DNA of 64,000 bases from Cystobasidiomycetes sp. EMM_F5 (Eukaryota). The DNA lies in the NCBI GenBank assembly GCA_051047955.1, contig JBPGPT010000001.1:806001-870000 (forward strand), in the 5' to 3' direction. How positions within the stretch are numbered: position 1 is the stretch's first letter; every line of letters begins with the position of its first letter. Shown here piece after piece: positions 19,604-24,510 of the stretch. The notes under the pieces were generated by a model, which was not told the origin of the DNA, did no database searches, and worked only from the letters and a program-made list of their open reading frames with translations. A program made the translations under genes and the position numbers.

Positions 19604-21295
19604 TTACTGGACAAGCGCAAACCACGTCAGAAAACGCAACTAGCAGCAATTGTAACACTAGACCCACCTGGTTCTTGCACTCTTGTGGGTTCTGTTGCGA
19701 GCCGGGAGTGACACCACTCGTCGGTGGTTCAGCAGCCTTGCGGGCACCCTTGATTGCACGTCCTCCAGTGACCTCTTCGTCATCATCATCGTCATCCAGA
19801 TCATCCGCATCATCGTCGTCGTCGAATTCGTCAGAGTCGAATGCATTCTCGTCCAGTTCGCTCTGTAACGCTTTGCCGGTAAAATAGTCGATGGCATGCG
19901 GGACAATCTGAAGGCGATGCTTTCGTCAACCCAGCTGCCCCTTCAACTTGGCACCGTAACAACTCACGCGATCCTTGATGTCCTCTCCGATCTGATAGTC
20001 GAATTCGAGCTTTTCATCGAGGTCGTCTTCAACAGCAGACTCGTCTTCGTCTTCGGCAGGAGGAGTTGGCGGCTTGAAGAAGGTAAAGAATGAGTCTGTA
20101 GGGACAACCTTCTTGACGGTACGTGTTTGATTGGTATCTGCTCGAGCGTACCCGTCAGCGACTGTAAATAATGGATAACGTGAAAAAAGGCAAGCCTACT
20201 CTTGTTTCGCTGTTTCTTGGTTTCTACCCGGACAGTGAGGTCCTTTCCAGTCTTCCACTTGATCTCGGTACCCTCTGCATGATCATACACAAAGTCGCCC
20301 AGGGAGCCAACCTCTTCTTGGTAGTAGTACGTCTTTGTGAGAATCTTGTCCTCGAAGAACTCCTTTCGGCCTTCGCCAAACTCGAAAAGCAATTTGAAGC
20401 CGGGTTTACCACTCTCGAGGTACTCGACGCGGACGTCGACCAGGTGCTTTAGTGCTTCTTCGTCACGCTCGGTAATGAGCTCGGAGATGCCGGCATGATT
20501 GGAGAGAGCAGTCAGCCAGAATTGAGGAATGCCCTTCTCGCCTCCCTCGGCTTCTGCGCCAGTAAGGATCGTTGGCTCTTCCTCATCTTCGTCCTCATCA
20601 TCCTCATCCGCGTCGACCTTGTAGCCCTTTTTGATTTCGTCTTCGGTAGGCTCAGTCGCACCCTCAATGATATTACGACGACGCTCGTATATCGGGCGGT
20701 ACTTTTCTGCAAAACGCTTCTCGAGTTCGAGAATCTCCTTTTGAAACTCTGCCTCAATCTTTGTATGCTCGAGCTGCAAACCCTTCAAACCTTCCACCCG
20801 CTGACGGACGATGGGGGAAAGAGATTCAATGTAGCCAGACGACTTTCCAATGAGCTTTGTCAGCTGTCCTTGGACCATTTGAGCGAGGAGCGGGTTCTGT
20901 AGGTCGAGCACATATCAGGTCTCGATCGCAATGGACATGTACATCCACCCGCTCACGTTAGCCAGAGCTCCACGAATATCATCACGAGCTTGATTGGACG
21001 AGATGGTGTCCTCTACTTCATCGTCGTCTTCGCCGATTGTAGTTGGGATATGCGGTCGACTGCGATACCGGCAGGATTCGTACAGGTCGCAGCGCAAACG
21101 AGGGAGCGAGAACACCGGTGACAGACGTAGAGTTCCGACAAGTCACCATGCGTATGTGCGATACTTTGCGCAGCATCAATGGGAAAAAACGTACCTGAGG
21201 CCGCCTGGGGTCGCCTGCAGTGGGGTGTTTTGCGGTGTAGGTGCAACGCCGTCGCCAAGCGCGTTTGCGATAGCCTGAGCTGTTGCTTTGCTCAT
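19604..21295 (-). CDS. NAP1: Nucleosome assembly protein Nap1
   Basis: LIGKSSGYIESL, KGIPQFWLTAL, ITERDEEALKHLVDV, LTKTYYY, KKQRNK, SFFTFF, VPHAIDYFTG, an acidic tail and C-terminal CKNQ. The stop TAA (19606-19604) lies alone in the last exon. Confidence 0.95.
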
Positions 21296-21665: not shown

Positions 21666-22877
21666 CTACCGCATCGGCGGAGGCGGGGTTCCATCGGGCG
21701 GGCGGCCAGACCCGTCTCTTCCGTCAGCATTGACGCTGCTAGCTCGAGGCACGATGCTCCTAATGAGCCGCCCGCCCTGTTCGAGCAGCTTTTGCCCGAG
21801 AACCAAGCCCTCGCCGTTCACTGCCCGAGTATACAGCTCTTGCGCAATCCACTGCGGCTTGCCGTCTTCCAATATTTGTGGTGCCTTCATCAATGTATTC
21901 CATGTGGGGCTGTATATTCTGTAAAGGTGGTTCTCAAACCTCTGCAGAGTGTTTGCCAATGTCGCCTCGAATGGATACAGAGTCTCGATGCTAAAAATAC
22001 GAAGGCCATCGGTATCAGCAGGCTATACTTCGCGCAACCGTGTTAGATTCACCTTGTTGCGGTAGCTGCTGGAACAGTATTCCCTATAGCCCCTCTTGTA
22101 CCGAAAGATGTCCCATTCTCAACCGCTGTAGCGGCAGCCTTCGCAGCCTTGTCCTGTTGGAACAGGTCTAGCTTGTGTACGCTCTCAGGCGTCCAGGGTT
22201 CCATATGTCTCTTGACGCAGACTTGTCCCGAACCTTTATAGCTGAACAAGCTATGTTAATGTGTGTCTGACAGCACAAATGAGCGGTACCGACTAGTAGT
22301 GATTTTGTAATATAGGAAGACGGTATTTTGTTTCGGCAGCTGTGGATGTCGATGCTTCCGGGTGCACGGTACGCGGATCGCTCGTCTCGGTCGTTATAGG
22401 TTTCTTGACGCGAATGTAGCACTTGACACTGCATGCTGGAGCCTTCTGAACATCCTGATTTCTCCGAAATCTGCATACCCGGTTTAGCCAATAAACTGTT
22501 AGATGGAATAGGGTGTCCGCGAGCTTACGCTACAATGGAAGCGAGAGTGTCATCAGCATACGAATAGCTGATCCGGTCATTCCCATTGGCCGACACTCAC
22601 AATCCGACAGCATATAGCAATTGAACCAGCAGGTCTGATTAATCTTATCATTCTCCAAATGCCGAAACTGTCTCGCACTCCCGTTCTTGCGAGCAGCTGC
22701 GATGAATTCTGTCACACTCGCTTCCGCTTGCTGCCGTTCAGTCTTTGGCGCATTTTGCGTCGTCATCGCTTCCGAATTCGAAGCTGCCGTTTCAAAGCTG
22801 TTGCCCGATGTCGTTGGTGCACTGCTGCCAGGCGATGGCGGCGCACCCGGTCTCCCGAGTCCATCTTTGTGCAGCAT
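21666..22877 (-). CDS. Hypothetical protein with twin CX3C motif; model includes a 1-nt exon
   Basis: Exons 22877-22601, 22529, 22470-~22297, ~22250-22033 and ~21990-21666 join via canonical introns into one open frame containing CWFNC-x18-CSVKC. Confidence 0.7.
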
Positions 22878-23139
22878 ACTTGGGGAATATGTTGGCAGGT
22901 CTGTGCTGTCAAAAGACTAAGCCTTGTGCGCTGAAAAGGACGTGCGTTCAAGTGGTGTGGCAAACAGCAATGGAATCGCATACAGCTTGATGTGTTTATT
23001 TCGATAGGCGATACATGTTTGCAGCACTAGCTTAAAAGACAATACAGCAGTGACCGAGAGAATATAGACGATTTGATGACGATCTTAGCAGCTTGAAGAA
23101 GCGGTCTTGAAAAAGAGATTACGTTCGAAGCTTGGCCAT

Positions 23140-24510
23140 CTAGTCGAAGCGTTGCCTCTTCTGACCTTGATTAAACGACCCTCCTTGGAAGCCGCCTCTG
23201 CCGCCTCTTCCGCCGCCGCCCATGCCATTGCCCATCATGTTGCCCATGCCGGCCATTCCGCCCATCATGCCCATCATCGGGTTACCCATCATATTCATCA
23301 TGGGATTTCCTCCACCCATATTGGCATTGCCGCCGCCGTTGCCCATCATTCCACCTCCCCGGCCAAATCCTCCTCCTCCTCGACCGCTGAAGCCGCCACG
23401 GTCTCCACCCATATTGCCGCCGCCGCCTCTACCGCTAGGCCCGCTGCCCATGGCGCCCGTACGGATACCGCCGCTGCCAATTTGTCTTCCATCTGTCGAC
23501 GTTCAAAATTAGTAATGTGGACGGTTGACTGCAGCAGTATACCGACCCTTTTGCGACTTGTACGGGTTGAAGCTTCCAGATTGCTGATGGACGTTCATTC
23601 GCTTGCCTTGAAAGTCGCTGTCATACATAATGTGTTAGCCCTCGTGCAAGAAAACCCGCCAGGATGCTCTCACCTCGTTTCCAGGAACCTCTTGACCCTT
23701 GCTGCTTCTTCCTCGTTCTGGCACTCCACAAACGCCATGCTAAACGCATTCTTAGGGTCTCCCTGTGCCTAGTCCATTTCCAGCCACTCACCCTTTCGAC
23801 TTGCCATTGACTTTGTGTTCAGAAAAAGTCACATCGTTCAGGCTAATGTTGACTCCCATGGATGCGCACAGCCTTCGAAGGTCTTCGTCGCTGGTAAACT
23901 AGACATGTGCTTCAGCGCACGGGCAATCTTACCGTTCGTAGGTTGCCATGTATTGCCTACCCAGTGTAATTCGGTGATATTGAGAGCATTCATGCCGGTC
24001 CTTTGCATCTGGCCACCATTCATGTCGTCCATGCCGCCCATGTTACCCATGCCGCCCATGCCTCCCATTCCTCCCATGTTGCCCATGCTCATATTGCCCA
24101 TGCCATTCATACCCATCATGTTTTGTCCCATCATGCCCATTCCCATCATGTTTGGCATACCGCCCATCATGTTGCCGGCATTCATTGGAGACATGCCGCC
24201 CATGTTCATGCCACCCATCATGTTTTGGTTCTGATTTTGATTCTGATTCTGATTATCCGGAGGTGGGGACTGCTGGGATGCGGAAGGTCCATCCTGCTGC
24301 TATTGGCATACCATTCATTATACAGTCACACACTGGGCGGAATGGGATCTACCTTGTCTGGGGCAGACGTGCCCGTGGTCGAGTTTGACGGTTTCGACGA
24401 GTCGAGGTCTCCGTAGATCTGAGGCACAAGATCAGTCTACAAGTTTAAATTTGGCCGGATATTAATCGGCATACATCGCTTTCATCGCCGTAGATGTCGA
24501 TGTCTGCCAT
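23140..24510 (-). CDS. RRM protein, CFIm68/CPSF6-like cleavage factor subunit
   Basis: Starts [13 protein letters not shown] reads [19 protein letters not shown]...[18 protein letters not shown], resembling the CPSF6/7 RRM. Flanked by M/G/N-rich and RGG low-complexity tracts. Six introns. Confidence 0.8.

Follow-up and report, generated by a model that had tools for sequence, protein, structure and literature searches.

A candidate one-base exon between two short introns in a predicted minus-strand gene of Cystobasidiomycetes sp. EMM_F5

Does a single cytosine, bordered on one side by a splice acceptor and on the other by a splice donor, serve as an exon of its own in the yeast-lineage basidiomycete Cystobasidiomycetes sp. 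EMM_F5? The question is raised by a locus in a 64-kilobase (kb) stretch of contig JBPGPT010000001.1 (this whole stretch is the window to which all coordinates below refer), where the original prediction placed two introns one base apart, such that one serine codon would be divided among three exons of a gene read on the minus strand. We regard a one-base exon at position 22529, within a real and unannotated coding gene, as plausible and as yet unverified, with a probability of roughly 0.45. Among the splice models that we enumerated for this locus, the predicted one-base-exon structure is the best-fitting one.

All of the splice elements named in the original prediction are present at the locus. 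Acceptor, base and donor (TTGTAG, C and GTAAGC) follow one another at 22535-22523, with exactly one base between the acceptor and the donor, and each of the two introns is complete by itself, with a donor, a branch motif, an acceptor and a local size. The earlier description of this size as typical agrees with our measurement, as the introns are 71 and 58 nucleotides (nt) long and the local median is 59.5 nt. The branch A of intron 1 lies 23 nt before the end of the intron and that of the CTAAC motif in intron 2 lies 28 nt before its end; intron 2 also contains a second near-consensus branch motif, GCTAAAC (22488-22482), at 12-13 nt from the end.

The consequences for the reading frame were evaluated by enumerating GT..AG introns of 40-260 nt, with single-intron models being kept when the frame beyond the junction had 25 or more open codons. 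This enumeration confirmed that the serine codon T+C+A keeps the downstream frame open, that skipping of the C leads to a stop 25 codons later, and that retention of intron 2 gives TCG TAA at once, all of which had been foreseen. In the computed join, the frame running through exon 1, the C and exon 2 is open only with the lone C. As the frame of exon 2 contains no Met, it would be expressible only as a downstream exon. Under the one-base-exon model the predicted product has about 151 residues, its N-terminal half is of low complexity, and it carries one C-x3-C motif near the end of exon 1 and a second in exon 2.

We propose that the locus is a small minus-strand gene, running from an ATG at 22877 to a stop ending at 22293, in which two ordinary short spliceosomal introns would lie one base apart. 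Having its own donor, branch motif and acceptor, each intron could be recognised across the intron (intron definition), as is usual where fungal introns are short. Removal of the two would be successive, and both possible orders would lead to the same mRNA: if intron 1 left first, the new junction would be followed directly by GTAAGC, whereas if intron 2 left first, the TAG acceptor would be followed by the C and then by exon 2. In both cases the C at 22529 would stay in the messenger RNA (mRNA), supply the middle base of the serine codon and put exon 2, with the second C-x3-C motif, in frame. Transcription, splicing, the order of splicing and the production of a protein at this locus are what we infer from this anatomy. 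The original prediction went further in holding that splicing must be ordered and that the arrangement could act as a switch coupled to nonsense-mediated mRNA decay (NMD). We found no support for either proposal; an early stop upon intron retention is true of most introns.

How often would such an arrangement be expected by chance? Both introns comply with a strict pattern (donor GT[AG]AG[TC], branch motif CT[AG]A[CT], length 45-90 nt), and we searched for this pattern in the window and in chance sequence, represented by first-order Markov simulations of 64-kb windows in runs of 100 and 300. Of 300 simulated windows, one contained a strict pair of introns with a one-base gap, and the candidate locus is the sole pair of this kind in the real window, where strict donors are themselves enriched (30, versus 14.0 +/- 3.9 in simulations). 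The strict arrangement is thus rare by chance. With about 14 strict chance introns per 128 kb (both strands), rough arithmetic gives a probability of about 1e-4 per intron that a second intron begins one base after the first. The strict arrangement also sits at the very point at which one further base is required to connect two coding-like frames.

These two flanking frames look coding-like in their codon usage. Codons were scored by log-odds with a model trained on 19 long open reading frames (ORFs) of the window, comprising 8,092 codons and not including the candidate locus. When cut into 58-codon chunks, the training ORFs had a mean in-frame score of 0.148 +/- 0.087 per codon and a mean off-frame score of -0.353. 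The score of exon 2 was 0.156 per codon, the highest of the six frames over its span, and was rarely reached by simulated stop-free frames (P=0.009); it was matched by 6 of 120 real open 58-codon chunks outside the long ORFs, a comparison that is conservative because this set of chunks includes genuine small exons. Exon 1 scored 0.083 per codon, again the top of six frames (P=0.051 versus simulated open frames). Between the two, the 23-codon frame that reads through intron 1 scored -0.16 and is closed by the TAG of the acceptor itself, and the stretch 22529-22470 scored -0.06 per codon. A gene on the opposite strand was considered and rejected, as all plus-strand ORFs over the locus score negative.

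For a local standard of intron structure we used 22 acceptor-distinct seed introns of the window, which join coding-like frames and comply with the motif rules; as they were picked by the same motif rules as the candidate introns, they can guide the comparison but do not form an independent standard. They have a median length of 59.5 nt, with 18 of 22 at 45-80 nt and 4 of 22 at 100 nt or more, and their branch A lies at a median of 16 nt from the 3' end, being at 23 nt or less in 21 of 22. A set built from coding continuity alone was polluted (35 pairs with a median length of 126 nt, including 11 GAG acceptors) and was not used.

A conserved neighbouring gene, 2 kb away, offered a benchmark with homologs. 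The minus-strand ORF at 19967-20914 encodes a NAP-family histone chaperone (Pfam NAP, E=1.8e-66) and belongs to a NAP1 gene at 21295-19604. Over 74% of the query, its translation matches the NCBI entry 'histone chaperone [Cystobasidiomycetes sp. EMM_F5]' with 100% identity, the remainder of the ORF being absent from an exact spliced mapping of that public protein; the next best matches are 86% and 85% identical, and named relatives reach about 64% at best. The public model contains a 38-nt intron (20199-20162) and, with it, an eight-residue insertion that was found in none of nine homologs. With the acceptor at 20138, the intron becomes 62 nt long (20199-20138) and the consensus residues are restored exactly, so that this acceptor is very likely misplaced in the public ab initio annotation. 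In the 62-nt intron, CTGAC lies 17 nt from the end and a CAG upstream of the branch motif is bypassed; judged by its predicted elements, this intron is built like those of the candidate gene. The mapping of the public NAP1 model also places, after the last Gln, a 61-nt GTGGGT...TCCAG intron at 19667-19607 on the minus strand (region 19667-19604). The last exon of that ab initio model, which is without RNA support, codes only for the stop TAA.

Table 1. Predicted features of the candidate gene and of the adjacent downstream gene, in window coordinates
Feature	Position	Strand	Details
Exon 1	22601..22877	minus	ATG 22877-22875; 92 codons + T 22601
Intron 1	22530..22600	minus	71 nt; donor GTGAGT 22600-22595, branch motif GCTGAT 22557-22552, acceptor TTGTAG
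Candidate one-base exon	22529..22529	minus	C, middle base of TCA (Ser 93)
Intron 2	22471..22528	minus	58 nt; donor GTAAGC 22528-22523, branch motif CTAAC 22502-22498, acceptor ATGCAG
Exon 2	22293..22470	minus	A 22470, third base of the Ser codon; 58 codons; stop TAG 22295-22293
Rival CAG acceptor	22496..22498	minus	ends the 105-nt intron (22600-22496); adjoins CTAAC directly
Downstream small two-exon gene	21666..22204	minus	ATG 22204; 62-nt intron 22052-21991; stop 21668-21666

If the gene is real, could its frames be joined in a simpler way? When donors at or beyond Leu 90 are considered, five of the 100 enumerated single-intron models reach the frame of exon 2. The strong GTGAGT donor is used by just two of these, ending at 22496 (105 nt) and at 22436 (165 nt), and the other three depart from weak donors (GTCGGA 22608, GTGTCG 22596 and GTAGCG 22533) and all end at 22471. 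For the best-placed sites the flanking phases reconcile only with the lone C; in-frame alternatives exist in the 105-nt intron and in the weak-donor models, and codon usage and branch-site placement disfavour the single-intron alternatives. The 105-nt intron had been named as the competing model in the original prediction, and it is indeed in frame, adding nine residues (FYWLNRVCR) between the C-x3-C motifs to give a product of 159 residues, in which these motifs would be 27 residues apart rather than the 18 of the one-base-exon model. It has the strong GTGAGT donor and would demand no unusual splicing, and a chance-level match of the disputed stretch in the Protein Data Bank (PDB; E=0.42) to the RanBP2-type finger of YAF2 aligns YW..VC.FR. 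A RanBP2-type zinc finger has four zinc-binding Cys in the order W-x-C-x2-C ... C-x2-C, however, and the YAF2 match covers two of the four, with no zinc-finger family found by Pfam; a finger of this type was rejected as the identity of the product. Moreover, the eight whole codons that the 105-nt intron would add (22493-22470) score -0.44 per codon, or about -3.5 bits. The CTAAC motif adjoins the acceptor and thus cannot be its branch site, and the sole other branch motif, GCTGAT, lies 57 nt upstream, so that a TAG (22530) in a favourable position and an AAG (22524) would be skipped, although the first AG after a branch point is normally used as acceptor. The length falls in the tail of the local distribution described above, and the acceptor-C-donor junction, the second branch motif and the frame-compatible acceptor would all become coincidences. 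We consider this 105-nt intron highly improbable. A real gene might also yield a main mRNA that lacks the in-frame one-base exon, either because intron 2 is retained (93 residues ending at TCG TAA, the rest being 3' untranslated region, UTR) or because a 130-nt intron runs from GTGAGT to 22471 (117 residues with a frameshifted tail). Both versions use strong sites only, the end of a protein one codon past an intron is unremarkable, and fungi commonly show intron retention and alternative sites. Yet they leave the coding-like usage of exon 2 unexplained (0.156, P=0.009), the frameshifted tail of the 130-nt version scores about -0.18 to -0.19 per codon, and a second intron would have to lie by chance one base after a real one, at the rate of about 1e-4 per intron estimated above. 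An mRNA of either kind as the main product appears improbable to us, and even when joined with the 105-nt intron, such other splicing outcomes of a real gene make up a rather unlikely class.

It may also be that both introns are real and that the one-base exon is present in RNA, but in a different transcript, namely a non-coding leader of the downstream gene or a five-exon gene of 322 codons (22877-21666). The joined frame of the latter is open for all 322 codons, its additional 52-nt intron (22293-22242) is of typical length with TTAAC 14 nt before TTCAG, and the downstream exons are coding-like (0.221 and 0.122). Its donor, GTCGGT (22293-22288), nevertheless has a C at position 3, unlike all seed and NAP1 introns, the seeds having been selected for a purine at this position. 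The 12 linker codons (22240-22205) score -0.19, and a separate ATG for the downstream gene is present at 22204; given the weak donor and the negative linker score, two separate genes are more likely. Against a non-coding leader stand the coding-like scores of both candidate exons. Taken together, these other transcripts are about as improbable as the retained and 130-nt versions. A further explanation is that there is no functional gene at all, with the 935-nt stretch from the stop of the upstream Gly/Met-rich gene (23140) to the ATG of the small downstream gene (22204) being intergenic or UTR and its frames and introns being coincidences or the relics of a decayed gene, and several results that weigh against the one-base exon bear on this explanation. 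Under a loose pattern (donor GTRNGY, yTRAy 8-36 nt before YAG, intron length 45-120 nt), splice signals are no commoner in the window than in random sequence (141 donors, versus 141.4 +/- 14.1 in 100 simulations and 139.9 +/- 12.7 in 300), and loose intron pairs one base apart occur 0.18-0.21 times per simulated 64-kb window, or about once in five windows; the arrangement defined in this loose way is common by chance and nothing special. Open frames are not scarce either, as the six frames of the window hold 293 non-overlapping open chunks of 92 codons. The codon model is small, its 8,092 codons coming from one window only, and the positive score of exon 1 stems from its low-complexity first half, while its last 40 codons, which include the first C-x3-C, score -0.014, a neutral value that is not coding-like. 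The 28-nt branch distance of intron 2 is long, with 1 of 22 seeds at 28 nt or more, and to this is added the dependence of the seeds on the same motif rules. A search of sequencing runs for 22250-22950 listed no RNA run, the locus is absent from public protein sets, and neither exon yielded a homolog, family or paralog in the searches given below. On the other side, the strict arrangement appeared in only one of 300 simulated windows and lies exactly between two frames that each have the top codon score of six (P=0.009 and P=0.051 versus random open frames), and the organism is one without a sequenced sister taxon, in which a lack of homologs is expected of an orphan. We judge the absence of a functional gene to be unlikely.

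A word-based search with exon 1, which covered proteins of 50-161 amino acids (aa), gave no homolog, and an exhaustive phmmer search with exon 1 against 1.84 billion representatives returned two low-complexity matches only (567 and 1617 aa), neither of them an ortholog; it follows that the public proteome containing the 100%-identical NAP1 protein holds no exon 1 protein. A search with exon 2 and the nine disputed residues, covering proteins of 119-2000 aa, gave no homolog. With the exons scanned separately, no Pfam family was found for either product; a sub-threshold Pfam match of exon 1 to Coleoptericin (E=0.094) was rejected. There was no paralog or repeat of the locus within the window, no related DNA in two metagenome scans with exon 1 and the neighbouring NAP1 protein as queries, and nothing beyond chance-level matches in PDB sequence searches (E 0.42-1.6). 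In the ESM Atlas, the end of exon 1 reached a best score of 0.85 with unrelated bacterial families, and exon 2 had no usable match. Small Tim proteins carry a twin C-x3-C motif whose members are spaced 11-16 residues apart, and the twin C-x3-C of the candidate protein, if it is made, recalls this family; we do not assign the protein to it, as neither exon product, scanned separately, matched zf-Tim10_DDP at E values up to 10. The 18.6-Mb Illumina assembly of this genome was annotated with funannotate (6,580 genes, 86.4% BUSCO completeness, with no RNA evidence mentioned), and the organism has no sequenced sister taxon (PMC12697161), so that a small orphan gene would be expected to lack homologs.

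What would a one-base exon at this locus resemble? Two known kinds of stepwise splicing come close. At a recursive splice site, GT follows AG without an intervening base and nothing is left in the mRNA, and a stwintron is defined by one intron that lies within a splice signal (donor, branch or acceptor) of another. The candidate would share with both a stepwise removal in which a donor stands directly after a new junction. It would differ from recursive sites in that one base remains in the mRNA, and a stwintron was rejected because all six signals of the two introns are intact in the genomic sequence.

True one-base exons have been described in both fungi and plants. The long-read annotation of Coprinopsis cinerea includes 13 exons of 1 nt in 13 genes, along with 57 exons of 2 nt and 27 of 3 nt; of the 89 gene models with an exon of 3 nt or less, 63 acquire an alternative stop when that exon is omitted (PMC12230235). 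This amounts to roughly one one-base exon per thousand genes in one basidiomycete, and the description of such exons as very rare in the original prediction was overstated for basidiomycetes. Like the species with these exons, EMM_F5 is a basidiomycete with short introns, and omission of the candidate base would likewise bring an early stop. In Fusarium, a one-base exon of CYP621A is conserved in 20 orthologs, is supported by 18 reads and was presented as the first fungal case (PMC12940212). There, too, AG and GT are one base apart and the flanking phases are incompatible, and the combined interruption of 139 nt, compared with 130 nt at our locus, is about twice the usual intron; its authors take an interruption of double size as a hint of a hidden micro-exon (PMC12940212). 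The Fusarium base is a G (AGGGT), which fits both splice consensus sequences, whereas the candidate base is a C, and the Fusarium exon lies in a conserved PKG motif and was checked against an intronless relative (PMC12940212), whereas the candidate gene is an orphan.

In plants, a one-base exon is present in APC11 of Arabidopsis (PMC4674806), and those of APC11 and VPS55 are conserved and missing from every reference annotation (PMC8831610). As proposed for our locus, the plant exons consist of one base between two ordinary introns; they are constitutive, were missed by annotation and read aligners, and some plants form an alternative product when a flanking intron is retained (PMC4674806, PMC8831610). 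Directly downstream of the VPS55 micro-exon stands a strong and conserved donor, GTRAGT (PMC8831610), compared with GTAAGC in the candidate. The plant cases are conserved across land plants, were established by reverse transcription PCR and green fluorescent protein fusions, and concern conserved proteins (PMC4674806, PMC8831610), and those of Coprinopsis cinerea derive from full-length transcripts (PMC12230235); in this respect the candidate, a prediction from genomic DNA, differs from both.

The candidate, if real, is a further case of a documented phenomenon. It would leave the present understanding of splicing as it is, because one-base exons have already been shown by experiments in plants and by reads in Fusarium and Coprinopsis. 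It would extend a short but growing list into a yeast lineage that has barely been sampled, and it would be another instance in which ab initio pipelines drop a whole gene that contains such an exon. Among the matches listed, no paper concerned Pucciniomycotina, the group to which this yeast belongs, by its title, and a literature search for micro-exons in that group returned nothing useful. A far more speculative extension, which we consider very improbable, is that the one-base exon acts as a splicing checkpoint: the overlapping sites would force sequential removal, any failure, whether one of the introns is retained or the splice spans both, would give an early stop, and splicing efficiency coupled to mRNA decay would set how much is made of an orphan protein with twin C-x3-C motifs, which may be a substrate of the disulfide relay of the mitochondrial intermembrane space. 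This would then be the first one-base exon reported in Pucciniomycotina.

The surroundings of the candidate gene contain two further minus-strand genes. The small downstream gene listed in Table 1 had no Pfam or PDB match, and no Pfam family was found in three ORFs of the downstream region. The weak donor GTCGGT overlaps the stop TAG of the candidate gene, and the 52-nt candidate intron that begins there would fuse the two genes. The upstream gene (in the region 23140-24299, minus) ends in a long low-complexity tail rich in Gly, Met and Asn. Its two ORF pieces, 23140-23502 and 23838-24299, contain RGG-like and MMGN-like repeats and had no Pfam match. A candidate intron of 174 nt lies in this region at 23791-23618.

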